Positions 936-63,934 of a stretch of 64,000 bases of DNA are shown here, piece by piece. Made by a program: the position numbers and the translations under genes. Under the pieces are notes generated by a model that was not told the origin of the DNA, searched no databases, and was given only the letters and a program-made list of their open reading frames with translations. Source of the DNA: Candidatus Aegiribacteria sp. MLS_C (GTDB lineage: Bacteria > Fermentibacterota > Fermentibacteria > Fermentibacterales > JCC-6); assembly GCA_002030045.1 (NCBI GenBank), contig LQBI01000031.1:94854-158853 (forward strand). The letters run 5' to 3'. How positions within the stretch are numbered: position 1 is the stretch's first letter; each line of letters starts with the position of its first letter.

Positions 936-2000
936 ATGATCGACGTTATTTGCGGAGCAAGACCGAATTTCATGAAAGTCGACCCCATCGTGAGGAACCT
1001 CGACCCCGGCATCGGTGTCCGTATAGTGCACACCGGTCAGCACTACGACCATATCATGTCCCAGAGCTTCTTCGACCAGCTCCGGCTGCCGCCTCCGGAC
1101 CTTAACCTCGAGGTGGGTTCGGCCAGCATCACAGCCCAGACAGCGGCCATAATGGAACGGTACGAGGAGGTCGTCGCCGATGGAGCTCCGGTGGCCGTCG
1201 TGGTGGTGGGTGACGTCAATTCCACCCTTGCCTGCTCACTTGTCGCGGTCAGGTACGGTATTCCGGTGATCCACGTGGAGGCAGGGCTGCGAAGCTTCGA
1301 CAGGCGAATGCCGGAGGAGATAAACCGAGTACTGACCGACCAGATAGCCGATCTGCTCCTGATAACCAGCGCCGAGGCCAGGGACAACCTGCTGGCCGAG
1401 GGCAAGAGCAGCAGGAGCATCAAGCTGGTGGGCAATCCCATGATAGATACTCTGAAGAGACTCCTGCCGGAGGCCATGTCCTCCGAGGAGCCGCCGGTGG
1501 GCGAGCGCTACTGCCTGGTCACGCTTCACAGGCCCTCGAATGTGGACGACCCGGAGAGGCTGATGAGGATACTTGAGGCACTCGGCGACCTCGAGGGTCT
1601 CAGGGTGGTGTTCCCGGCCCATCCCCGGACCCGCGCCAGCATCCTCTCCTGGAGACTGGAAGTGCCCTCCAGTGTGCTTGTAGGCGAACCCATGACCTAT
1701 TTGCAGTTCCTGAGAGCACAGGCGGGTGCGGCGGGTGTGATTACCGACTCGGGCGGGGTACAGGAAGAGACCAGCGTCCTCGGAGTGCCCTGCGTGACCG
1801 TGCGGACCAGCACCGAAAGGCCCGTAACGCTTGAACTGGGGACCAATGTCCTTTGCCCCGTCGTATCGGAACTGAAGGATGCGGTTATCTCGCAGATGGA
1901 GAAACGAACCGGTTCTCCTCCGGAGATACCTTTGTGGGACGGGAAGGCGGGGGGCAGGATAGCCGCAGCCATAGAGGAATTCATAGGAGGTGCCAGATGA
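936..2000 (+). CDS. wecB: UDP-N-acetylglucosamine 2-epimerase (non-hydrolysing)
   Basis: RBS GGAGAAGGAA is followed by ATG 936. Motifs HTGQHYD, GDVNSTLA and HVEAGLRSFD…PEEINR are typical of WecB/MnaA. Confidence 0.85.
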   Translation: MIDVICGARPNFMKVDPIVRNLDPGIGVRIVHTGQHYDHIMSQSFFDQLRLPPPDLNLEVGSASITAQTAAIMERYEEVVADGAPVAVVVVGDVNSTLACSLVAVRYGIPVIHVEAGLRSFDRRMPEEINRVLTDQIADLLLITSAEARDNLLAEGKSSRSIKLVGNPMIDTLKRLLPEAMSSEEPPVGERYCLVTLHRPSNVDDPERLMRILEALGDLEGLRVVFPAHPRTRASILSWRLEVPSSVLVGEPMTYLQFLRAQAGAAGVITDSGGVQEETSVLGVPCVTVRTSTERPVTLELGTNVLCPVVSELKDAVISQMEKRTGSPPEIPLWDGKAGGRIAAAIEEFIGGAR

Positions 2001-3427
2001 GGAGCCTGACAGCAGCTGCAGCCATCGGTCCGGTGTTCATGGTCTTCATCGCCGCGGCATGTGGCGGTTCCGGCGACGGAGGCTTGCGCGTCTCCGCCGC
2101 GGATTCGGGCACTCAGAAATTCGCGGTTTCCATTCGGGGCGACGATGTGGGCTACATGCAGCTCGACATAGAGGAGTACGGTGAGGATTCACTCCTGATA
2201 ACCCAGACCATCAGCTGGAACATGATCCTCATGGGGAACAGGCGGGACATCGAGATGTCCATGACCGCCGTCACCGATACGACCTACGACCTGGGCAGCA
2301 TGGAGATGATGATGTCCGACGGGTCCGCAGAGATCAATGTCACGGCCGTCAGGCGTGATTCCCTGCTTGTTTCCTCGATAGGCACCGCGGGCAGGGTGAT
2401 AGACAACTCGACAGTGATCGAGGGGGATTACCTCCCTGTGCTGGCCGATCTGGCATGCGCCTCCATGGATTGGACCGAGGGCCAGGAAAGGATCTTTCAG
2501 TCCTTCGATCCCGCCAGCGGAGCGGTTCTATCGGCCACCGCCCTGTGCCAGGGTTACGAGGAGATGGACCTGCTCGGCGACACAGTGGAGGCCGTAAGGC
2601 TCCAGCTGTCCCAGATGGGAACGAGCAACCTGGTCTGGGTTCACGAGGGACAGATAGTCCGTGAGTACGAAGAGGGTCTGGGAATGGAGATGACCCGTGT
2701 CCCGCCTGGACAGGGGGGGGATATAATTGCAACAACCGACCTGTACGAGGTCTTCGCTGTTTCCTCGACCCCCATAGCTGATCCCAGGTCGGTGAGGGAC
2801 AGGACATTCGTCCTCGAGGGAGACATCGACTGGTCCCTGTTCCAGCTGGACATCCCTCCACTGCAGGAGGCGAGGGGCTGCACGGTGCGGGTCTCGAACA
2901 CCGCACCGGACCTTCCGGCGGGGTTCCCTTCGCCGGCGGTTCCGGACAGCCTTGCTGACTACGTTCTTCCCGAACCCATGATACAGTCCGGGGATTCAAC
3001 GATCTGCGCCGGGGCCGCGGAAGTGACCGCCGGCAGCCGTGACGCATGGGAAGCCGCACGCAGGATCTGTTCCTTCGTCGATACTGCGGTGGAGAACACC
3101 CCCACGGTTTCCCTACCCTCCGCTGTGGACGTGATGGAAAACCTCCGCGGCGACTGCAACGAGCACACCATTCTGTTCGTGGCCATGGCCAGGGCGGTCG
3201 GACTGCCTTCGAGGATATGCGCGGGAATAGTCTACCTGGACGGCTCCTTCGGCTACCATGCATGGCCCATGGTGTGGGTGGGCGACTGGGTGGCAATGGA
3301 CCCGACCTTCGGTCAGTACCTGGCCGACGGGACACATGTGATCCTGGCCACGGGGGACCTCCAGTCCCAGTACGTTGTCAATTCCGTGATCGGAAGGCTC
3401 AGCGTCATCGAGCTGATGGAGGAGTGA
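1997..3427 (+). CDS. lipoprotein with C-terminal transglutaminase-like cysteine-protease domain
   Basis: AGGAGG RBS; ATG 1997 overlaps the wecB stop. Signal peptide plus lipobox (…FIAAAC GGS). The C-terminal CNEHTILFVAMARAVGLPSRICAGIVY…GYHAWPMVWVGDWVAMDPTFG fits a transglutaminase-like Cys/His/Asp core. Confidence 0.7.
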   Translation: MRSLTAAAAIGPVFMVFIAAACGGSGDGGLRVSAADSGTQKFAVSIRGDDVGYMQLDIEEYGEDSLLITQTISWNMILMGNRRDIEMSMTAVTDTTYDLGSMEMMMSDGSAEINVTAVRRDSLLVSSIGTAGRVIDNSTVIEGDYLPVLADLACASMDWTEGQERIFQSFDPASGAVLSATALCQGYEEMDLLGDTVEAVRLQLSQMGTSNLVWVHEGQIVREYEEGLGMEMTRVPPGQGGDIIATTDLYEVFAVSSTPIADPRSVRDRTFVLEGDIDWSLFQLDIPPLQEARGCTVRVSNTAPDLPAGFPSPAVPDSLADYVLPEPMIQSGDSTICAGAAEVTAGSRDAWEAARRICSFVDTAVENTPTVSLPSAVDVMENLRGDCNEHTILFVAMARAVGLPSRICAGIVYLDGSFGYHAWPMVWVGDWVAMDPTFGQYLADGTHVILATGDLQSQYVVNSVIGRLSVIELMEE

Positions 3428-4543
3428 ATGGCCTCAGATGCCGAGGTCCTTGCCATGAGGAAAGCCCTCAGGATGGCCTCCAAGGGCAGGGGGGCGGCAT
3501 TTCCCAATCCCATGGTGGGTGCCGTTGTCCTGGACGGGAATGGAGTCGAGGTCGGTGACGGCTTCCACCGGAAATGCGGGGAACCCCATGCCGAGACCGT
3601 GGCCCTGGCCGCGGCGGGGGACAGGGCGAGGGGAGGGACCATGGTGGTCACTCTGGAGCCCTGCTGCCATCAGGGCAGGACCGGACCCTGCACCGAGAAG
3701 ATAATCGGGGCGGGCATCTCCAGGGTCGTAGTGGCCATGCAGGACCCGGACCCGAGGGTGCACGGGGGCGGGATCAGAGCCCTGGAGGAGGCGGGCATCG
3801 ATGTGGAGACCGGTATTCTGGCGGAAAGGGCCGCCGAACTGAACCGATTCTACCTTCATTACGTGAGGACCGGCAGGAGCTGGGTCACCCTGAAGCTGGC
3901 CTTGAGCCTGGACGGCAGGGTGGCGGCAGCTGACGGCGGAAGCCGGTGGATCTCCTGCGAGGAGTCCAGGAAGACTGTCCATAAAAAGAGGGCATCGGTG
4001 TCGGCGGTCATGACCGGGGCCGGTACCGTCCGCCGTGACGACCCCCGGCTCACCGCCAGGGATCTCCCTTTCCCGCTCTGCGAACAGCCGGCAAGGGTAG
4101 TGGTGACCGGTTCCGGAGACCTGGGTGATCCGAAGAGATTCCTGTCCGCTCCGGGAAGGATAATAATAGCCCTGCCCCGGGGAGCGGGCGATCTTCCTGA
4201 GATCATTCGTGGAAGGAGTGACCTGGAGATCTGGGAGCTTCCGAAGGACAGCCGCGGCGGCGTCGACCTGAGGGAACTCCTGGCCAGGACCGCTTCACGC
4301 GGGATGGGGGAAGTGCTCTGCGAATCGGGTCCCGGTCTCGCTGCGAACCTGATGATCGAGGGACTGGTGGATTCGGTCATGTTCTTCACGGCACCGATCC
4401 TCATGGGTAACGGTGGAGTACCCGCCATCGGGGACCTTGGAGTCCGGAGCATGGATGGTGCAATAAGGCTTCGCGGCGTGAGGCGACGAAGGATCGGAAC
4501 GGATCAGCTGACGGAGGGGGAGATTGTTCACGGGTCTGATTGA
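3428..4543 (+). CDS. ribD: bifunctional diaminohydroxyphosphoribosylaminopyrimidine deaminase / 5-amino-6-(5-phosphoribosylamino)uracil reductase
   Basis: CMP/dCMP-deaminase zinc motif (HAETVAL…LEPCCHQGRTGPC) followed by an RibD reductase domain; 371 aa; ends with TGA. Confidence 0.9.
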   Translation: MASDAEVLAMRKALRMASKGRGAAFPNPMVGAVVLDGNGVEVGDGFHRKCGEPHAETVALAAAGDRARGGTMVVTLEPCCHQGRTGPCTEKIIGAGISRVVVAMQDPDPRVHGGGIRALEEAGIDVETGILAERAAELNRFYLHYVRTGRSWVTLKLALSLDGRVAAADGGSRWISCEESRKTVHKKRASVSAVMTGAGTVRRDDPRLTARDLPFPLCEQPARVVVTGSGDLGDPKRFLSAPGRIIIALPRGAGDLPEIIRGRSDLEIWELPKDSRGGVDLRELLARTASRGMGEVLCESGPGLAANLMIEGLVDSVMFFTAPILMGNGGVPAIGDLGVRSMDGAIRLRGVRRRRIGTDQLTEGEIVHGSD

Positions 4544-10069: not shown

Positions 10070-10906
10070 CTAGATCTTGAGGAGTTTCAGCGTTTCCGAA
10101 CCGTTCTCATCGGATGCCACCACGAGGTAGCAGCCGCATGCAAGACCGGATCCGTCAATGGTCATCGAACCGGTCAGGGGTTGTTCCATCATGACCCTGC
10201 CGGACATGTCGTAGAGGATCATCGTACCGCTCTCGAAGCCGGAAGATGAGATTACCACGGTGGAGTTGAAGGGGTTCCGGTCCGCAGCCAGTGACCTGGC
10301 TGTCGAGGTTCCGCCTTCGCCGGAAACCCCGTTGTAAGTCTGGATGTATACCTGGACAAAACCGTTGTAGTTGCTGGCCAGAACGTCTGGAAGGCCATCC
10401 TCGTTCCAGTCGTCGATACAGAACCTGGCTCCGTAGTATCCCGTATTGATGATGGCCTCGTTCCCAGAGAAGGCCGGGTTGGCGTTGGTGCCGGTGTTCT
10501 CGTAGTAGTAGATGCTGTAATCATTCGCACCGCAGAGCAGGTCCTTCCTGCCGTCCATGTTCATGTCAAAGACCTGAGGGCAGTTCCTGTAGTGGCTGAT
10601 GTTGGTGCCGCTGCTCTGAAGAAGCGAATAGGAGTTGTAGACTGGGTCCGTGTCTATCGTGTCGTTGATGTATAATCTGACGGTGCCGTCCTGGGTCCCC
10701 AGCAGCAGGTCACGGTTCCCGTCCTCGTCCCAGTCGACGCAGACCGGTGCCGAATTGTAGCCCACGTCTATCGTTACACCGCCGCAAACGAGGTCGGCCT
10801 CCTTCGTCAGTGTGATGGGTGATTCCGATGTCCGGCGGTAGTAGTGGGTGTAGCCATTTCGGTCCCCTACTACTATGTCGAGCATACCGTCGTCGTTGTA
10901 GTCCAC
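10070..10906 (-). CDS. FG-GAP/VCBS-repeat secreted protein, C-terminal part with T9SS C-terminal sorting domain (continuous in frame with 10934-11233 across a TGA)
   Basis: Repeated DxDxDG modules (VDWDEDGNRDLLLG, FDMNMDGRKDLLCG, DDWNEDGLPDVLAS). The C-terminus LYDMSGRVM…GCYLVVASDENGSETLKLLKI resembles a Por/T9SS tail. Confidence 0.6.
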   Translation of the reverse strand: MDYNDDGMLDIVVGDRNGYTHYYRRTSESPITLTKEADLVCGGVTIDVGYNSAPVCVDWDEDGNRDLLLGTQDGTVRLYINDTIDTDPVYNSYSLLQSSGTNISHYRNCPQVFDMNMDGRKDLLCGANDYSIYYYENTGTNANPAFSGNEAIINTGYYGARFCIDDWNEDGLPDVLASNYNGFVQVYIQTYNGVSGEGGTSTARSLAADRNPFNSTVVISSSGFESGTMILYDMSGRVMMEQPLTGSMTIDGSGLACGCYLVVASDENGSETLKLLKI

Positions 10907-10933
10907 AACCTGTGGATTCGTTGAACCTGTGCA

Positions 10934-11233
10934 TCAACCGTACGCCATGGTGATGATCACACCATCAGCGTAGAGGTAGGAGAACGAATTGAAAACCGGA
11001 GAGGCATTGGTCCCTTCGTTCTTGTAGAACCTGATATAACCGCTTGCGAACTGACCCAGGATGAGGTCCTTGAGCCCGTCACCATCCCAGTCTGCGACAC
11101 AGGGAGAGCCATAGTAACCGACGTCTATGACCGTTCCGCTGCACTGTAGATTGTAGGGCGACTCAAAACTGAAGGACTGGGATAGGACCAGGGTCGGGAA
11201 CAGCAATAGCGCGAAAAACAGAACCTTGTACAT
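10934..11233 (-). CDS. FG-GAP-repeat protein, N-terminal part with signal peptide; terminated by an in-frame TGA (plus-strand tca 10934-10936)
   Basis: RBS AAGGGGGGA; signal peptide MYKVLFFALLLFPTLVLSQ; FG-GAP module ADWDGDGLKDLILG. The same reading frame continues past the TGA into the 10070-10906 ORF. Confidence 0.6.
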   Translation of the reverse strand: MYKVLFFALLLFPTLVLSQSFSFESPYNLQCSGTVIDVGYYGSPCVADWDGDGLKDLILGQFASGYIRFYKNEGTNASPVFNSFSYLYADGVIITMAYG

Positions 11234-31285: not shown

Positions 31286-32158
31286 CTACCTGTTGACCAG
31301 GACGCAGTCCTCAAGGCCGACAAGTCCGAAGGACTCGCCGGCGATTGTTCCCCTGATCCTGACACCGTCCCTCGACGCCACCATGGCCGAATCGCTCGTT
31401 TCCGGGATCGCCCCCGTCATCTCGCAGGCCACGTACTTGGTGTAGATGTCACCGGACCCGGCAAGGTCCACCCTGACCGTAACGCCGTAATCCGTTGTGG
31501 AAGTCGTGGTCGAGTGGTAGTAACCCTCCACCACGACCCGGCGGCCGATCCACGTGTTGAAGAGTTCGTGGAACTCAGCGACAGGGATAGGCGTCGTACC
31601 GTTGCAGGCATAGGGGCTCGTCGCGGTACCGGGAGCCGCCTCCTCCGCACCCTGGACAAGCGAGGCACCGGTGAGCATCAGGTCCCCAGTCCAGTAGTAG
31701 TCCACGGTGCCGCGTACCGTGAGCAGCCGGTCCCCGCCCACCGGAACTCCCTGGACGGAGTCGAAGGCGAACGTGGCCAGCTCCTGGTCGCCACCGGGAG
31801 TTCCCACAAGGGCTACCTCATCCTCGATCGTCATGCTGTCGCCGTAGAAGATGCCGGGATATCCCTGCAGCGTTACCTCGAGTCCGTCCCAGGCGAAAAA
31901 GGCCTCATAGAGGGCGGCTGCACCCACCGGCGTATCTGCCGTTACCTCGGCCGGATCAAGCTTGCCCTCGGGGTAGAGGGGTTCAGGGGCAGCAGGTTCC
32001 TGTCCGGTATCCTGCTCCTGCATCGAAGCGGTCTCCGTGCTGTCCGGAGCCTCGAGTACTCCGGTGTCTCCGGAAGAATCCCCGTCGTCCTCAGGACCTC
32101 CTCCGCACGCCGGGACCATGAGCACCAGAAAAGCCATCGCAACCGCAGTTCTCTTCAT
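31286..32158 (-). CDS. lipoprotein with internally duplicated domain, unknown function
   Basis: Signal peptide plus lipobox (LVLMVPACGGG). Two similar halves (…LYEAFFAWDGLEVTLQGY… and …FHELFNTWIGRRVVVEGY…). Confidence 0.55.
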   Translation of the reverse strand: MKRTAVAMAFLVLMVPACGGGPEDDGDSSGDTGVLEAPDSTETASMQEQDTGQEPAAPEPLYPEGKLDPAEVTADTPVGAAALYEAFFAWDGLEVTLQGYPGIFYGDSMTIEDEVALVGTPGGDQELATFAFDSVQGVPVGGDRLLTVRGTVDYYWTGDLMLTGASLVQGAEEAAPGTATSPYACNGTTPIPVAEFHELFNTWIGRRVVVEGYYHSTTTSTTDYGVTVRVDLAGSGDIYTKYVACEMTGAIPETSDSAMVASRDGVRIRGTIAGESFGLVGLEDCVLVNR

Positions 32159-33243: not shown

Positions 33244-35655
33244 CTACCTGCAGACTATCACCCTGCCGGTGTGGATACCGCCGGCCGGGTCCGCGGAGCG
33301 GATCATGTACACGCCCTGAGGCACTACGGAGCTGTCCCAGGTGATGGTGTGCTGACCCGCGGCCAGCGGGCCGGAATGGATTGTGGCCACCATCCTGCCC
33401 GCGGTGTCGTAGACGGACATGCTGAAGTCACCGGTGGCGGAGAGCGAGACCGGTATGGAGAGCAGTCCCGACACCGGGTTCGGCCATGGCGTGCCAACCG
33501 AGGTGACCATGGCGCCGGGTCCCTCACCGGTTCCCATGCCGTTGATGACGCCCTCCGCGGGCAGGCAGTTGTGGGCGGTGACCATCCAGAGGATGTCGTT
33601 CAGACCACCGATGGGATCGAAGGTCAGGGTGACGCAGCCGGTGGAATCGGTGACGCCGCTGGCCCAGAGGCTGTCGTGGTAGAGGCAGACGAGGGCGTTG
33701 TTCACCGGCGCCCTGGACAGGTCCACGTAGAAAGCTGCCTCGGTGGATCCCACGGGCAAAGTGTAGGGTGGAACCACGGAGAGTTCCATCGGTACCTCCG
33801 TCCTCATGTCCATGGTCGGGTCGCCGAACCAGTGGAAGAGGTCGTAGGTCGTCTCTGCGTACCACTCCCAGCTTCCATAGGGGTTGAAGGGAGCCGCCAC
33901 GTACATCTCCATCTTGGCGGTGGTGAGGGCCTGGCCCGCCAGGTAGTTGCCGGTGGGGTCGGTGTAGAGGGCCGGAGGTGTCGTGTACTGGTCGACGAAG
34001 GATTTGTGGTGTCCGTAGGTAAGGTAGTCGTTGAAGTAGCTGTAGCTTGAGGCAGTGGCGGCAAAGACCCCTACGGCGCCGCCCTCCATCCTGAAGAAGT
34101 TCTCGGCGAAGCAGTCGCCGGAGAACTGACCCGTGAGGCAGTTGGTGCTCATGACCATGGGGGTCATGTCGCCGTTGCTCAGGCTCGACAGGTTGCTGGT
34201 GTAGAACGGGGGATCGGCCCATCCGCTGATGGACCCGTGGTCGCGGTGCTGCACCAGGAACACCCCGCCGTTGATGGCGTCGGTGATGCCCGCGGCGTTG
34301 CCGTCCCAGACTATGTCTCCGGGTACCATCTGTCCGGCGCTGGGAAGGTCGCTCCTGTAATAGTAGGGGGGCGACTGGGAGGTGTCCTTCACGTACTCGC
34401 GCTGGACCTCCTTGCCGTAGATGTTCATGTAGGTGTCGCGGACGGTTTCCAGCGTGAAGCAGAACCAGCGGGTGGCGACGGTTCCCCCGTTTGCCTGCAG
34501 CATTCCGGCGGTGAGGACGTGTCCCCAGAAGTCCGGGTCCATGAGGGGATCGAACTGCCACTTGAGTATCTTGGCCTCGACTATGGGATAATGGCTGGTC
34601 GGCGTGACGAAGCGGCTGTGGAAGATGTCCGGGAAGTAATCGGAACCGTCGACGCAGACGTACCTGTTGTCGCTGTAGCACCCGGTGGGGGCGCTGTAGC
34701 TTGTGAGGTCCCCCTGGTCGCCCACGAAGAGGACGAAGCTGGGAGGTATTACCCAGTTGTCGTAGGCGTCCTTGATGTAGTTGTAGATCTCGGTCTGGGA
34801 CCAGCTGCCGGCGGCCACGACGGCGGTGAGGTAGCCCTGCCTCATCTTGGCCTCGATGAAGGCGTCCATCATGGTGTCCACGAAGTCGTCGCCTGCTATG
34901 ATGAGCAGGTCGGCGGCGGTTATGTCCCTGGCCTGCCTTATGTTCGAAGCCCTTATCGCCTCTCCGGAAGGTATATGGATCGAGGAAGCGGCTTCTCCCA
35001 GTATGCTGGAATTGACAAGGGTCCTGTAGGTATTGCGGAAGAACCTGCTCAGAAGCCTGGGATCCACCTGCACGGAGCCTCCCAGGTCAACCGTCACTCG
35101 AAGCCTCGGGTGAACGGTCATTACCTGTGTGGCTGCATTCCAGCTGAAGGGAAGGACGGTGAAGCGTCCGATGTTGACACCCCTCATGACGCCGGCTTCC
35201 TCGAAGGCCGCGTCCTGCCGGGGATAGTTTCCCTGAGCGTACATCTCAGGAAGGTAGGTGAAGGGTACCGGGTCGTAGGAGTTGTCCGACGGAATCGGCT
35301 GCATCGGCGAAGGGGAGAACCCTTCCAGCACCACCGGTTCGCCGACGGGCTCGACGGATATCGAGACGTTCGGGGCATCCGGCAGGGCTGCCAGGAAGGA
35401 AACCTTGGGAAGCATCGGGGCGCCTTCCGTCTCGGCGTAGGGGGTCATTGAAGGTACCGAAAGCACGCTGAAGGTCTTCCCCTGCTCCGTGAAGTCGGTG
35501 TAGAAGAACCCGGGCACGGTGATGTCGACCGTGAAACCCGAAGGAGTGCATTCCACGACCTCGAGGCTGGCGTGGCCGAGGTCGGTGATTCCGAAGTCGA
35601 CCCATTCGGCCAGCGACAGGGAGGAAAGCGCTAGAAGGAGGATCAAATGTTTCAT
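33244..35655 (-). CDS. peptidase C25 (gingipain-like) with T9SS C-terminal sorting domain
   Basis: Signal peptide. Gingipain-type blocks (LLIIAGDDFVDT, VLFVGDQGDL, HRDHGS). The C-terminus SMSVYDTAGRMVATI…GVYMIRSADPAGGIHTGRVIVCR is T9SS-tail-like. Confidence 0.8.
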   Translation of the reverse strand: MKHLILLLALSSLSLAEWVDFGITDLGHASLEVVECTPSGFTVDITVPGFFYTDFTEQGKTFSVLSVPSMTPYAETEGAPMLPKVSFLAALPDAPNVSISVEPVGEPVVLEGFSPSPMQPIPSDNSYDPVPFTYLPEMYAQGNYPRQDAAFEEAGVMRGVNIGRFTVLPFSWNAATQVMTVHPRLRVTVDLGGSVQVDPRLLSRFFRNTYRTLVNSSILGEAASSIHIPSGEAIRASNIRQARDITAADLLIIAGDDFVDTMMDAFIEAKMRQGYLTAVVAAGSWSQTEIYNYIKDAYDNWVIPPSFVLFVGDQGDLTSYSAPTGCYSDNRYVCVDGSDYFPDIFHSRFVTPTSHYPIVEAKILKWQFDPLMDPDFWGHVLTAGMLQANGGTVATRWFCFTLETVRDTYMNIYGKEVQREYVKDTSQSPPYYYRSDLPSAGQMVPGDIVWDGNAAGITDAINGGVFLVQHRDHGSISGWADPPFYTSNLSSLSNGDMTPMVMSTNCLTGQFSGDCFAENFFRMEGGAVGVFAATASSYSYFNDYLTYGHHKSFVDQYTTPPALYTDPTGNYLAGQALTTAKMEMYVAAPFNPYGSWEWYAETTYDLFHWFGDPTMDMRTEVPMELSVVPPYTLPVGSTEAAFYVDLSRAPVNNALVCLYHDSLWASGVTDSTGCVTLTFDPIGGLNDILWMVTAHNCLPAEGVINGMGTGEGPGAMVTSVGTPWPNPVSGLLSIPVSLSATGDFSMSVYDTAGRMVATIHSGPLAAGQHTITWDSSVVPQGVYMIRSADPAGGIHTGRVIVCR

Positions 35656-41430: not shown

Positions 41431-41666
41431 AATCCGTTTTCCTTTCCTGAACAGGCATTTACTATGTTCGATCCGGTCAGGCGAAACAAGACTCCGGCAG
41501 CAGCAGCAATGGGGGACAATTGCAGTTCTTGACACGTTTCTGGAAACAGTCGATATTTACCTCCGTAGCCAGGACTGACAGGGAATTGCCGGTCCGGGAA
41601 CCCGAAGGCGTTGCTGCTGTTCCTTTTCATAGTCATCCTGTATGTTATTGCTCGAAAGGAGAAGAC

Positions 41667-42665
41667 ATGAGATTCACTCTTGTATTACTTTCCATTCTGG
41701 CGGCTGTGGCCCTCTCGGCCGAGAGGACCGTACTCTGGGAGTACTTCACCCAGACCGGTTGACCCACCTGCTACAGCAGCTGGTCAGCTGTTAAGAGTGC
41801 CATCAACCCCTTCCTCACCTCCGGCGATGTAGCTCCACTCTACATCTTCTACAACGGTCCCGCCGCATGTGCCTTCAACTCGACCAGGTTCAGCTTCTAC
41901 GGCGTCGGGGCGACACCCACGGTCAAGATCGACGGGCTCGCGTCCGGCTATGCGCCCTCGGGATACGCGACAGCCATCAACAACAGGCTGGCGGTCCCCT
42001 CCTACGTGGACATCGACGTTACAATGGTGGGCGATGCCTCCGGCGGCACCGCGTACATCAGTGTCACAGCCGAGGAGGAGCCCTCCCAGACCTATCCTAT
42101 CAAGGTCTGGTGCGTGATCACCGAGGACCACGACATTGCCGCCGGAACAGGCTGGGGCGGGTACACGAACATGGAGATGATGTGGCTTCCCCGTGCATGG
42201 CCACTGGGGACCCAGGGCCAGGCGCTGAACTTCACGGGCCCGTACCCGCAGACCCTGAGCGTGGCCGGGGACTACACCCTCGACCCCTCACAGCACCAGT
42301 TCGACAACCTGAACGTGACCACCTTCGTCCAGTACACATCCGGCACAAGGGAGTGTCTCAACGCCGACCATATGGACATGCCCGACACGGCTACCGGAGT
42401 CTACGGCGACGAGGAGGGTTACTCACCAGTCACGCTCCTCACCGCAGGGCCCAACCCTTCCAACGGGGCCGTCACCATCAGCTGCGGGCTTCCCGCAGGA
42501 GTGGCCGGGACGGTAAGGGTATTCGATATAACCGGCAGGATCGTGAATTCCTTCCCCGCCGGGGATGCCGTCGAAACCCAGCTGGCGGAAAGCGGCGTCT
42601 ACTTCGTGCACCTGAGCACTACCGGAGGGGAATCGGTCAGGAGACAGATCACCGTAATAAGGTAG
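41667..42665 (+). CDS. predicted selenoprotein: signal-peptide, thioredoxin-like (UxxC) N-terminal domain, T9SS C-terminal sorting domain; in-frame UGA at 41760-41762
   Basis: AAAGGAGAAG RBS and ATG 41667. Signal peptide MRFTLVLLSILAAVALSA. VLWEYFTQTG-[TGA]-PTCYSSW resembles a Trx-fold F/W-x-x-W-C-x-x-C motif with Sec in place of the first Cys. The frame stays open across the TGA for 301 more codons. The C-terminus (…VRVFDITGRIVNSF…GVYFVHLSTTGGESVRRQITVIR) is T9SS-tail-like. Confidence 0.55.
41775..41792 (+). other. candidate bacterial SECIS-like hairpin 12 nt downstream of the UGA
   Basis: AGCAGC-UGGUCA-GCUGUU, a 6-bp stem (one G-U pair) with a G/U-containing apical loop. Confidence 0.3.
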
Positions 42666-43171: not shown

Positions 43172-43777
43172 TCAGGTGTTGCAGAAATGCTTATCCAGGT
43201 AGTAGGCCAGAAGCCTCCTGGCCTCCTCCTCGCACTCTCCGCAGGAGGTGCCCACCTTGGTCTTCTCCTGCAGCTGGTAGTAGTTCCTGGCTCCCTCAAG
43301 GACCGCGTGCTCTATCTCGTCCTCGGTGATGTTGAGGCACTGGCAGACCACCCGTGAGCCGGTGTCGTGGACCCTGTCCTCCATACCGATGGAGCGGTAG
43401 TAGTTGTCTATAGCCCTGCGCAGGGCCTTGTCGCCGAGGACGGAGCAGTGTACCTTGTTCTCGGGGAGCCCGCCGAGCTGCTCTATGATGTCCCTGTTGG
43501 AGATTCTGTATGCGTCCTCGAGTTTCATGCCCTTCACCATCTCGGAGAGGACGGATGTGCTGGCTATGGCGCTGGCGCACCCGAAGGTCTTCCACCGGCA
43601 GTCCGTGATGGTCATCGATTCGGGGTCTATCTTCAGGTAGAAGGTCATCTCGTCGCCGCACTTGATGTTGCCGGTGGTTCCCTTCGCGTCGTACTCGAAG
43701 CCCTCCTCGTCGTACATGATGTTCTTCGGGTCCATGAAGTGCTCCTTGACCCGGTCCGAGTACAGCCAGTCGCTCAT
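43172..43777 (-). CDS. nifU: NifU-like Fe-S cluster scaffold (IscU-type N-domain plus BFD-like [2Fe-2S] domain)
   Basis: N-terminus MSDWLYSDRVKEHFMDPKN; scaffold cysteines (GNIKCGDEM…FGCASAIAS); BFD-like CQCLNITEDEI…CGEC. Confidence 0.85.
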   Translation of the reverse strand: MSDWLYSDRVKEHFMDPKNIMYDEEGFEYDAKGTTGNIKCGDEMTFYLKIDPESMTITDCRWKTFGCASAIASTSVLSEMVKGMKLEDAYRISNRDIIEQLGGLPENKVHCSVLGDKALRRAIDNYYRSIGMEDRVHDTGSRVVCQCLNITEDEIEHAVLEGARNYYQLQEKTKVGTSCGECEEEARRLLAYYLDKHFCNT

Positions 43778-44958
43778 CTGCAGCTCCCGCCCCAGGCAGT
43801 GGACATCTTCCTCAGTCTCCGCACCACGCCCGGAAGGACCTCGAGCACCCTCTCGACGTCGTCCTCCGTTGTGGACCTCCCCATGCTGATGCGAAGGGAT
43901 CCGTGACTGTACTCAACGGGAAGACCCATCTCGAGGAGCACATGGGAAGGGTCAAGGGACCCCGACGCGCATGCGGAACCGGTGGAGACCTCTATGCCCT
44001 CCATGTCGAGATACAGCAGCATGGCCTCCCCCTCGACGCCGGCGAAGGAGACGTTCAGCGTCGAATGTACGCAGTGTTCCGGGAAGCTGTTGAAGTGAAT
44101 GTCGTCTATCCTTTCAATTATTCCTTCCCTGAGCCTGCGGTTGAGGGCCTCAAGCTTCCTTCCCTCGGCTTCCATCTCCAGTCCCCTCATTTCCGCAGCG
44201 ATTCCGAATCCCGTTATTCCCAGGGTGTTCTCGGTGCCCGCCCGTCGTCCCATTTCCTGGTGGCCGCCTCGGATCAGGGGACAGAAGGGCGTGCCCCTCC
44301 TTACATAAAGAGCGCCCACCCCCTTGGGTCCGTATATCTTGTGGGCCGAGACCGTCAGGAAGTCCACTTCCAGTTCTCTAACGTCAACCGGTATCTTGCC
44401 CACGGCCTGTACGGCATCGGTGTGGAAGAGGGCTCCCGCCCTGTGGGCGAGGTCCAACGCCGTACGAACATCCTGTATCGCACCTGTCTCGTTGTTCACC
44501 ATCATGATGGAAACCAGCGACGTATCCCTGGCGAGGGCCTCCTCGAGGTCCTCCATCCTGAGCAGGCCACGTTCATCGACGCCTATCCTGGCCACGCTTG
44601 CGCCGCGGTTCTCAAGACATTTGGAGGTCTCGAGGATACACGGGTGCTCGATGGTGGAAGTGACCAGCTGGCTCTCGACCGAAGGATGGATGCCGCACTG
44701 CGCCCCGGTGCAGCCGAGGATTGACAGGACGGTGTTGTTGGCCTCGGAGCCGCTGCCCACGAACATCATATCCCCGGGTTCCGCGTTTATCAGCGCCGCC
44801 ACCCTGCCCCTTGCCTCCTCAAGCAGAGCCCTGGCCTCCCTGCCGTCGGCGTGGAGGCTGGATGGATTCCCGTAGAGGTCCATGGAGTCTATGATCGACT
44901 TCCTGACCTCGGGATGCAGTGGAGTCGTCGCGTTATGGTCCAGGTAGATCCTCTTCAT
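43774..44958 (-). CDS. nifS: cysteine desulfurase
   Basis: MKRIYLDHNATTP start; PLP lysine context SAHKIYGPKG; active-site loop STGSACAS; 4-nt overlap with nifU. Confidence 0.85.
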   Translation of the reverse strand: MKRIYLDHNATTPLHPEVRKSIIDSMDLYGNPSSLHADGREARALLEEARGRVAALINAEPGDMMFVGSGSEANNTVLSILGCTGAQCGIHPSVESQLVTSTIEHPCILETSKCLENRGASVARIGVDERGLLRMEDLEEALARDTSLVSIMMVNNETGAIQDVRTALDLAHRAGALFHTDAVQAVGKIPVDVRELEVDFLTVSAHKIYGPKGVGALYVRRGTPFCPLIRGGHQEMGRRAGTENTLGITGFGIAAEMRGLEMEAEGRKLEALNRRLREGIIERIDDIHFNSFPEHCVHSTLNVSFAGVEGEAMLLYLDMEGIEVSTGSACASGSLDPSHVLLEMGLPVEYSHGSLRISMGRSTTEDDVERVLEVLPGVVRRLRKMSTAWGGSCR

Positions 44959-45127
44959 CTTCTCTCCAGGTTCATGAAACCTCATATCCGTCGACGCCCC
45001 GTGATTATGTGCCTGCCCAACGTGAAATGCAACCGCTCATAGCCGGTTCCCCTCCATTGTCCCCGGAGCGGACCTTGGACATGTTTTCCTTCTTGGCGGT
45101 AAAAAAAAGGAAGGAACGGGGTCTCCC

Positions 45128-61681: not shown

Positions 61682-62723
61682 GCAGTTCCTCCTCGACGAA
61701 GGTGTTCAGCGGAAGAGGCTCCTCCGGGTCCTTTCCCGCCCTGTAGTCGAAGAGCGCGGAAGTGCCGGCGCCTACCATGCTGACAAGTCTTCCAACGGGG
61801 ATCCCTGCGGGGCAGGCGTCCTCGCACATACCGCAGCCGACGCAGGAAATGCTCATATGGGCCATTCGGCCGATGTGGAACAGAAGGGTATCGGAGACCA
61901 GCCTGGCCGCCCCTGACCTTCGGGACCGGTCGAGGTGCGAGGATGCCGGACTGCGTCTGTCCTTCATGTCGATGAAGCACTGCCTGCAGTAGCATATAGG
62001 ACATACCGTCCTGCAGGCCCTGCATCCGATGCAGTCGGCGAAGAAGTCCGACAGCCGGCCTATGCCCGCCACCTGTTGCCTCAGTTCTGTCCTCGCCCCC
62101 TCCGCGGTACCGAGCCTGAGTGCCCTGAGTTCTTCCGTTCTTTTCGACCATTCGTCCAGGCTGCCCTGTTCCTCGAGACCCAGCGAGGACGCGAGTTCCC
62201 CGCCCTTAGCCGTCAGCGGGAGCAGGAGGTTCGAATCAGCGGACCTGACGATGCAGGCGTCGCCGCAGGCGGTGAATTCGGAGCACTGCCTGCAGGCAGG
62301 TCGCAGGTTTGCCGGATCGCATTCTTCGGGTTCCGCCGCGCCGTCGTAGAGGTCCAGCTGAATGACACCGGGACAGTCCATGGTGACCAGCGTAAGGTTC
62401 GCGTGGTCGATCTGACGGAGTTTCATCACCTCCACCGCCGCCCTTGCCTCGCAGGGCCGCATTATGGCCAGTATTCTGCGGGATGAGGGCTCTCCGGCCG
62501 CCGAGGACAGGGCCCTGGCCCCCTGTACGGTCATTACCGGCGGCAGGGGTTCCGCCGAGGTCAGAGCGTCAGGCGTTCCCGCCAGTATCCAGCTGTAGCT
62601 GTCCCCGGGACCCCTTGACGGAACCATCACGAAGTCGGCGTACCCCTCCCTGAGAGCGGAGTATGCCAGCTCAAGGAGCGCTTCGCGAAGCGGCAGGCCG
62701 GGGCTGGTGACGAGGCCCCTCAT
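61665..62723 (-). CDS. FrhB/FdhB-family protein, paralog 2, with 2x[4Fe-4S] ferredoxin insert
   Basis: CIGCRACRTVCPIC and CVGCGMCEDACPAG. Start MRGLVTSP overlaps the hdrA-like stop (ATGA). Confidence 0.7.
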   Translation of the reverse strand: MRGLVTSPGLPLREALLELAYSALREGYADFVMVPSRGPGDSYSWILAGTPDALTSAEPLPPVMTVQGARALSSAAGEPSSRRILAIMRPCEARAAVEVMKLRQIDHANLTLVTMDCPGVIQLDLYDGAAEPEECDPANLRPACRQCSEFTACGDACIVRSADSNLLLPLTAKGGELASSLGLEEQGSLDEWSKRTEELRALRLGTAEGARTELRQQVAGIGRLSDFFADCIGCRACRTVCPICYCRQCFIDMKDRRSPASSHLDRSRRSGAARLVSDTLLFHIGRMAHMSISCVGCGMCEDACPAGIPVGRLVSMVGAGTSALFDYRAGKDPEEPLPLNTFVEEELHEFED

Positions 62724-63934
62724 CTCAGGGCTCCCTCCACCTGCGACCGGATCTGTTCGGGAGTGAAGTGCAGCGACCGTATGGCTCCGGAAGGACACGC
62801 CGCGGCGCAATTACCGCAACCCTTGCATAGAACGCCGTTGACGGTGCACACGAACCTCTCCTCATCGAAGGAAATGGCTCCGAAACCGCAGACGTCCATG
62901 CACTGCCGGCATCCGCGGCAGAGTGTCTCGTTTATGACGGACCTCCTTGGTTCCGTCATGACCTCCCTGCCGGGGACCAGGGCTGAGAGGATGCCGCCTG
63001 CCACAGCCTCGGCGCTTCTGACCGAGTCGCCGGGACCGCAGGGGCCTCCTGCGCAGCCCGCTATGTACACGCCGTCGATGGCGGTGGAGAACGGATCGAG
63101 GAAAGTGTGCCTTCGTGAAGGGAAACCTGACTGTCCAGCCGATAGACGCAGCATTCCAGCTATTCCAGAGAATCCTTTCGACGGCCGGTACTTCCCGTCT
63201 TCCATCTCGCAGCCGGTTGCCAGTACCAGTGCACCGACCCTGAGAGGTTCGTCGAGGCTGGTGACGGAAACAATGAAATTCCCGAAGAAACCGACTATTT
63301 CCTGGGGCTCGCTTCCGGTCAGGACCTCGATGGAACTGGTTCGACCGACCTCCTCGGCCAGTTCCGCGGTAACGGCCAGGTCCCTGCCCTCCGGGCTGCC
63401 GCCCAGCTCCGGCTCCCTCTCCAGGAGGACTACCCTTCTGCCGGCTTCCGCGAGTATCAGGGAGGCTATCATGCCGGTGAGCCCTCCTCCTATCACGAGC
63501 ACGCCGGGATCGCAGACTATGCTGCTGGTCTCCAGGGCTTCATGGCGGGCCGCCCTCTCCACGGCGGCCCTGATCATCCTGAGGGCTTTCCAGGTGGCCA
63601 GGTCGCGGTCTGATGTAACCCATGCCACATGTTCACGGATGTTTGCCATTTCCATCATGAAGGGGTTCAGACCCGCCGCAGCGCATACGGCCATGAAGGT
63701 CCTCTCGTGCTCCCTGGGAGAACAGGCGGCCACCACCAGCCTTTCGAGACGGTTCGCCCTTATCCTCTCCGCGAGGTACTCCCTTCCTTTGGGGGAGCAG
63801 AGCAGACCGTAGGTCTCCGCGACCACCACTCCCGGCATGACGGATGCCTCCTCCGCGAGCCTGCCGATATCGACCCTGTCGCTGATGTTGTTCCCGCAGC
63901 TGCATATGAAGACTCCGGTCCGAGGAAGAATCAT
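62720..63934 (-). CDS. HdrA-like FAD-dependent flavoprotein (heterodisulfide reductase subunit A family, short QmoA-like form) with C-terminal ferredoxin cysteines
   Basis: N-terminus GVFICSCGNNISDRVD; FAD fold GVLVIGGGLTGMIASLIL; C-terminal CRGCRQCMDVC…CKGCGNCAAACP; AGGAGA RBS. Confidence 0.75.
   Translation of the reverse strand: MILPRTGVFICSCGNNISDRVDIGRLAEEASVMPGVVVAETYGLLCSPKGREYLAERIRANRLERLVVAACSPREHERTFMAVCAAAGLNPFMMEMANIREHVAWVTSDRDLATWKALRMIRAAVERAARHEALETSSIVCDPGVLVIGGGLTGMIASLILAEAGRRVVLLEREPELGGSPEGRDLAVTAELAEEVGRTSSIEVLTGSEPQEIVGFFGNFIVSVTSLDEPLRVGALVLATGCEMEDGKYRPSKGFSGIAGMLRLSAGQSGFPSRRHTFLDPFSTAIDGVYIAGCAGGPCGPGDSVRSAEAVAGGILSALVPGREVMTEPRRSVINETLCRGCRQCMDVCGFGAISFDEERFVCTVNGVLCKGCGNCAAACPSGAIRSLHFTPEQIRSQVEGALR

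Follow-up and report, generated by a model that had tools for sequence, protein, structure and literature searches.

A probable SECIS hairpin behind an in-frame UGA in a T9SS-sorted, thioredoxin-fold protein family of Fermentibacteria

In a stretch of 64,000 nucleotides from Candidatus Aegiribacteria sp. MLS_C (contig LQBI01000031.1; hereafter the window), a reading frame that opens at 41667 meets a UGA at codon 32 and then runs on, uninterrupted, to 42665. The question raised by this locus is whether that UGA ends a short peptide or is instead read as selenocysteine (Sec), as proposed in a first-pass annotation that had pointed to a hairpin immediately 3' of the codon. We consider it very likely that this hairpin (41775–41792) is a bacterial selenocysteine insertion sequence (bSECIS) element directing the UGA at 41760–41762 to be decoded as Sec, within an exported thioredoxin-fold oxidoreductase carrying a U-x-x-C motif, related to Omp28/HBP35 and sorted by the type IX secretion system (T9SS). 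SelB binding, Sec insertion, and the activity of the protein are what we infer from this arrangement, the central parts of which are as follows.

41667–42665, forward strand: complete predicted selenoprotein gene, 332 codons plus a stop (42663–42665), with the UGA as codon 32, from translation and tblastn
41760–41762, forward strand: in-frame UGA, candidate selenocysteine residue 32, from TGA/Cys alternation in homologues
41775–41792, forward strand: candidate SECIS hairpin with 5' arm 41775–41781, GGUC loop 41782–41785 and 3' arm 41786–41792, from sequence, folding, and covariation

The identity of the UGA can be approached through its homologues, collected in a scan of one genome per species that yielded 52 loci, nearly all of them labelled Fermentibacteria, Aegiribacteria or Sabulitectum. 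In most of these, tblastn aligned residues 1–332 across the TGA, with the protein conserved on both sides of it, and the window's TGA column also reads TGA in 57 further copies (translations of the form ...FEYFTQTG*xxC...). Three copies (L042, L043 and L045) have TGC or TGT in this column, i.e., a CxxC motif, and an exhaustive HMMER search returned many distant full-length homologues with FTNxxCxxC at the UGA position. The UGA column is therefore the first Cys of CxxC in the Cys-form homologues, giving the Sec/Cys alternation looked for at a Sec codon. In the window it is the first residue of a U-P-T-C redox motif (41760–41771; context WEYFTQTG-U-PTC), and because selenoproteins are classically marked by a UGA that takes the place of the first CxxC Cys within a thioredoxin fold, we read it as a Sec codon. 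Tandem arrays of two to three paralogues spaced ~1.1 kb apart, each with its own TGA and SECIS hairpin, are also common, e.g., in L010 (at 803, 1914 and 3052), L019 (at 786, 1933 and 3091), L013, L021, L025, L028, L031 and L044.

The hairpin was found where the first-pass annotation had placed it, its sequence and coordinates being exact: AGCAGC (41775–41780), TGGTCA (41781–41786) and GCTGTT (41787–41792), with the 12 nt of CCCACCTGCTAC (41763–41774) between the in-frame TGA and the hairpin start. Of the 6-bp stem and 6-nt loop it had described, the stem pairing stands and the loop is better drawn smaller, as U41781 and A41786 can pair to give a 7-bp stem capped by a GGUC tetraloop, with a folding energy of −7.0 to −7.1 kcal/mol for the bare hairpin. 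Longer-stem registers using the self-complementary CAGCUG, which had also been suggested, were rejected since only 2 nt would remain as a loop, an arrangement unfeasible within one molecule. At the base of the stem, the outermost pair (A41775–U41792) is not conserved, being unpaired in 21 of 57 homologues; the conserved core is thus 41776–41781 paired with 41786–41791. The GGUC starts 19 nt after the UGA, i.e., the first loop G is nucleotide 20 after it, and the hairpin codons specify Ser-Ser-Trp-Ser-Ala-Val (SSWSAV).

Taken as a single sequence, this hairpin is not beyond chance, and it is the comparative evidence that is decisive. A hairpin of at least 6 bp with loose bSECIS geometry follows 305 of the 1833 TGA trinucleotides in the window (17%), and one at −7.0 kcal/mol or lower follows 121 of them (6.6%). 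The strict form (GGUC tetraloop, at least 6 bp, 17–21 nt after the UGA) follows 1 of the 1833, and is also the sole match among window TGAs in open reading contexts. The folding energy of the 76-nt region is no better than that of shuffles (z = −0.74).

For comparison across the family, 57 distinct TGA-containing sequences were aligned over 81 nt without gaps, the hairpin starting 12 nt after the UGA in every aligned copy. The 7-pair helix is paired in 92.5% of cells, against 17–64% in slid registers, and compensatory changes are present in four of the seven pairs, with 26 doubly changed cells where shuffles lead one to expect 4.9. The covariation score is 0.291 (0.138 for shuffles), a value reached by 0 of 500 shuffles, and RNAalifold independently predicts the same helix. 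On a neighbour-joining tree of the remaining protein sequence, the exchanges A-U to G-C, C-G to U-A, and U-A to G-C each have at least two to four origins. Some compensations couple a non-synonymous change on one arm with a synonymous one on the other (AGC to GGC with GCT to GCC; AGC to AGT with GCT to ACT), and protein constraint cannot account for these. The structural conservation in homologues that the first-pass annotation had called for is thus borne out.

The same holds for conservation at synonymous positions, where codons are near-frozen inside the hairpin and variable outside it. The three Ser codons and the Ala codon of the hairpin have a synonymous codon entropy of 0.17–0.58 bits, whereas in the flanks these amino acids have 1.1–2.2 bits; the dominant hairpin codons are AGC for the first two Ser (42/46 and 42/47), TCA for the third (39/40), and GCT for Ala (47/53). 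GGUC is the apical loop of the window hairpin and of 40 of the 57 sequences, with GGCC, GGAC, GGGC, CGGG, CGGC, or a shifted AGGC/AGGU in the rest. Hairpins at this position include AGCAGCG-CGGG-CGCUGUU in the clade reading SSAGAV, CACAGC-AGGC-GCUGUG in L039 and L040, and CCGC-AGGU-GCGG in L047. The distant L052 (26% identical) has a different hairpin, CCUGCGGU-GGA-AUCGCAGG, beginning 9 nt after the UGA and placing its loop 17 nt after it.

How closely does this element resemble the SECIS hairpins already described? Fig. 2A of PMC13188914 summarises the bSECISearch consensus of Zhang and Gladyshev, in which the bSECIS model has a loop of 3–9 nt, an upper stem of 4–16 bp, a UGA-to-loop distance of 16–37 nt, an energy of −7.5 kcal/mol or lower, and, at loop position 1 or 2, a G that usually precedes G or U. 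SECIS hairpins have likewise been described as having a 6–8 bp stem and a conserved loop G ~20 nt after the UGA (PMC4605307). The window hairpin lies within the limits for loop (4 nt), stem (6–7 bp), loop G, and spacing (19 nt), in agreement with the SelB-type spacing and G/U-bearing loop that the first-pass annotation had recognised (PMC13188914; PMC4605307).

Comparison with fdhF of Escherichia coli (NC_000913) is closer still. Both elements lie within coding sequence directly 3' of the Sec UGA and share the GGUC loop, closed by an A-U or U-A pair stacked on G-C and C-G pairs (GCA-GGUC-UGC in fdhF, GCU-GGUC-AGC in the window); the distance from UGA to GGUC is 18 nt in fdhF and 19 nt in the window, with hairpin starts at 11 and 12 nt, respectively. 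Unlike fdhF, the window element lacks a covariation-supported extended lower helix, and the host proteins are unrelated. By analogy, the window hairpin would work like the fdhF element without being an exact structural copy of it. Rfam searches of the whole window yielded no family at gathering score; over 41600–41950, a limit of E ≤ 10 admitted only chance-level matches (E ≥ 2), with no SECIS family among them.

Several results weigh against Sec decoding by this element. SelA, SelB, SelD and tRNA-Sec were not found in the 64-kb window, of which ~40 open reading frames (ORFs) were scanned with Pfam or NCBIfam, so the Sec trait is seen only in a related metagenome-assembled genome (MAG). There, in locus L015, a tRNA-Sec precedes the family gene by 2.9 kb (ARAGORN; Rfam RF01852, 75.7 bits). 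At −7.0 to −7.1 kcal/mol, the window hairpin also falls short of the −7.5 kcal/mol of bSECISearch, and 18 of 57 homologues pass, though the threshold refers to structures as scored by that program and our values to the bare hairpin. The bulged U of the fdhF 5' arm, which E. coli SelB needs, is absent from the window hairpin. Two Cys-form copies of one lineage, L042 (3094–3156) and L043 (3061–3123), keep a 9-bp hairpin, GUGCUUACC-CUCA-GGUAAGUGC, so that a hairpin at the SECIS position is not strictly tied to a UGA; with no G in its loop, this may be a fossil SECIS left after Sec-to-Cys replacement, or a coincidence. Finally, on naked window RNA the SECIS hairpin has an ensemble probability of ~0–1%, and it is part of the naked-RNA minimum-free-energy (MFE) fold in only 25 of the 57 homologues.

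The tRNA-Sec of L015 occupies 80–172 of that locus on the reverse strand, between genes for an FGGY kinase and a TonB-dependent receptor, and is also contained in L053–L055, where no selA or selB was found beside it.

What naked window RNA forms instead is the following helix.

41756–41790, forward strand: competing helix of CGGUUGACC (41756–41764) with GGUCAGCUG (41782–41790), enclosing an inner CUGC/GCAG hairpin, from folding

Both as MFE and as centroid, 41755–41830 folds into this structure (−20.6 kcal/mol), in which the UGA is sequestered together with the SECIS loop. The first-pass annotation had counted the lack of a stable stem-loop after the UGA in this fold as grounds for refutation and, formally, that is the outcome, as the SECIS hairpin is absent from the MFE structure. 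The test is uninformative, and too crude, because the competing helix uses a UGA that would be inside the ribosome and is devoid of covariation support. With the 12 ribosome-covered nucleotides after the UGA masked, the probability of the hairpin is 0.87–0.98 in the window, while in the homologues, masked alike, its median is 0.91 and it is in the MFE fold of 41 of 57. Could the naked-mRNA fold nevertheless be the functional structure, e.g., as a translational attenuator or a UGA-masking element? Its energy would favour this, as would the pairing of 78.9% of its cells across homologues and the invariant GGT before the UGA; yet it does no better than column shuffles, 67 of 500 of which match it for paired cells and 295 of 500 for covariation, and its pairs persist only where other causes keep both partners invariant. 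Moreover, two of its nine outer pairs rely on the variable codon after the UGA, and the GCGGGC-loop clade has lost the outer helix (10–17 sequences unpaired at three positions), whereas its SECIS hairpin is compensated. We consider a functional role for this fold very unlikely; the helix may be a transient competitor.

Two further explanations dispense with Sec altogether. Were the UGA an ordinary stop and the hairpin functionless, the locus would hold a 31-aa peptide adjacent to a downstream ORF, and the conservation would reflect constraint on SSWSAV together with codon bias. Gene callers treat the locus in this manner in every database entry seen, and the hairpin of the single sequence is statistically not unusual. 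Against this, more than 50 loci conserve both frame and protein through the TGA and the Cys-form homologues are continuous, while the next in-frame start, 82 codons after the TGA, would give a T9SS cargo with no signal peptide; in addition, synonymous freezing is confined to the hairpin, with the same amino acids varying freely elsewhere, and the compensatory changes include non-synonymous ones. An ordinary stop is therefore barely credible. Alternatively, UGA could be reassigned (to Trp or Gly, as in codes 4 and 25) or be read by near-cognate suppression, with the hairpin as a generic read-through stimulator or pause site. Downstream hairpins can stimulate read-through in other systems, and the failure to find SelA, SelB and SelD in the window would fit. 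TGA nonetheless terminates ordinary genes here (e.g., at 3425–3427, closing the ORF 1853–3427 ahead of the ribD ATG at 3428), which makes a reassigned code unlikely, and conserved in-frame TGAs occur at redox-motif positions only; the residue that homologues align with the UGA studied here is the first Cys of CxxC, the classical Sec position. With a tRNA-Sec near a family member in the related MAG and a SelB-type GGUC loop at SelB-type spacing besides, we regard reassignment or read-through as very unlikely.

If the hairpin is indeed a bSECIS, its use could proceed as follows. As the ribosome approaches, it would unwind the competing helix that contains the UGA. Once the UGA has entered the A site, ~12 nt of downstream mRNA would be inside the ribosome, allowing the 6–7 bp GGUC hairpin to form at the mRNA entrance, where the C-terminal winged-helix domain of SelB, loaded with GTP and Sec-tRNA(Sec), would bind the apical GGU(C). 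Competing with RF2, SelB would in this way bring Sec-tRNA(Sec) to the UGA. The ribosome would afterwards melt the hairpin, translating it as Ser-Ser-Trp-Ser-Ala-Val.

Reading through the UGA changes the protein considerably, given that the GenBank annotation covers 42006–42665 only (219 aa, AVO35_06700; the database entry P0002). The first in-frame ATG, GTG or TTG after the TGA in the window is 82 codons downstream, and all 120 database homologues among the matches listed are truncated at the N terminus (coverage ≤88%). The full frame adds or retains the following parts.

41657–41661, forward strand: AGGAG, a Shine-Dalgarno-like motif 5 nt before the ATG, as read in the sequence
41667–41720, forward strand: predicted signal peptide MRFTLVLLSILAAVALSA, suggested by the sequence and by equivalent N-termini conserved in homologous loci
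42450–42650, forward strand: T9SS type A C-terminal sorting domain, residues 262–328 (PF18962, 1.7e-7; TIGR04183, 1.6e-8)

T9SS cargo requires a signal peptide, and as the truncated annotation has none, the truncated ORF would be a cargo protein lacking its export signal. An AlphaFold model of the part after the UGA, from which the first β-strand and the Sec residue are absent, has a predicted local distance difference test (pLDDT) score of 84 and predicts, in order, a thioredoxin-like fold (modelled without its first strand), a β-sandwich, and the C-terminal domain (CTD).

The best structural match to this protein is HBP35 of Porphyromonas gingivalis (PDB 5Y1A; Foldseek E = 2.7e-10 over 280 columns, template-modelling scores 0.46/0.44), which has the same architecture of signal peptide, thioredoxin-like domain with a dithiol motif, β domain, and T9SS CTD. 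HBP35 has Cys where the window protein has UGA, at an identity of ~14%, and the thioredoxin activity of HBP35 depends on its N-terminal CxxC (C48/C51; PMC2907840). A search of PDB sequences with the family profile found only T9SS CTDs and did not recover HBP35. Among protein families, NCBIfam NF045500 ("Omp28-related selenoprotein") is matched at 34–90 bits by Cys-form relatives and at 13.5 bits (E = 0.034) by the window protein, for a cut-off of 200; Pfam PF11551 (Omp28) is matched at up to 55.7 bits by Cys-form relatives, with no match to the window protein at E ≤ 1, and NF033782 is also matched by Cys-form relatives. The window protein is accordingly a distant relative of NF045500 and not a member of it, with the Fermentibacteria clade constituting a separate subfamily for which no model exists. 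Sec in Omp28-related proteins as such is already recognised by NCBI curators in NF045500.

Directly upstream of the UGA, the alignment shows one further constraint.

41757–41759, forward strand: invariant GGT (Gly) codon directly 5' of the UGA, from the alignment

This codon is GGT in 52 of the 52 cases in which it encodes Gly, and the nucleotide at −1 is T in 57 of 57 sequences, as it is in the distant L052 and in four of the five members of a second family, described below. Gly at +1, unlike that before the UGA, uses GGC or GGA, and the nucleotide at +4 is never T. The T at −1 may influence, as sequence context, either Sec decoding or termination; no supported structure explains it.

The second family is represented in the window by another candidate selenoprotein gene (10070–11233, reverse strand), whose product combines FG-GAP/VCBS-like repeats with a signal peptide and a T9SS sorting domain. 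The gene has an in-frame GGT TGA TGC (TGA at 10936–10934, reverse strand) within the motif YG-U-CTGSTNPQVVD, and a hairpin UCCACA-GGU-UGUGGA (10916–10902, reverse strand) 17 nt downstream of the TGA; both TGA and hairpin are conserved in four homologous loci (L057–L060). Some 55 of the nearest database homologues begin just after the TGA, and the nearest full-length ones (P0302 and P0323) carry Glu in place of the U, and not Cys. As the codons that form the hairpin specify a conserved repeat motif at the same time, this family offers no covariation to draw on. A generic scan for TGAs between long open stretches gave 88 cases, mostly spurious in this GC-rich window. We tentatively suggest, as a possibility that we would not rate highly, that Fermentibacteria export at least two unrelated T9SS selenoprotein families to the cell surface (Omp28/HBP35-like UxxC and FG-GAP G-U-C) which use GGU-loop SECIS elements and share a nearly invariant U before the UGA as a phylum-specific GGU-UGA requirement. 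If true, a U 5' of the UGA would be a context requirement for Sec decoding that lies outside the current bSECIS model.

Other genes of the window include a NifU/NifS-like pair (43172–44985, reverse strand) just downstream of the selenoprotein gene on the opposite strand, and an HdrA-like flavoprotein ORF at the window end (62720–63934, reverse strand), which is uninterrupted and has no Sec. A C25-family peptidase (33244–35655, reverse strand) carries a T9SS sorting domain as well, so that several T9SS cargo genes lie within the window. A 91-nt tRNA-Arg(CCT) called by ARAGORN at 31967–32057 (forward strand) probably represents either a spurious call or a tRNA of unusual form, the Rfam tRNA model being below gathering score throughout the window.

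With regard to Sec decoding itself, the RNA element is canonical, and nothing about it is new, since in loop and spacing it all but matches E. coli fdhF. What is new is a systematically mis-annotated subfamily of a known kind. Nothing in the literature searched links Fermentibacteria, Aegiribacteria or Omp28 with selenium or selenoproteins, and the MLS_C genome paper nowhere mentions selenium. The 57-sequence, covariation-supported bSECIS alignment could help to train predictors of bacterial SECIS elements and selenoproteins. Ultimately, the value of this finding is in annotation and ecology: the family, found in the candidate phylum Fermentibacteria (Aegiribacteria, Sabulitectum and Fermentibacter), is truncated in every database entry seen, with the loss of its signal peptide and active site. 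Read correctly, its members would be thiol/selenol oxidoreductases that the T9SS directs to the surface of anaerobes living in digesters and sulfidic sediments.

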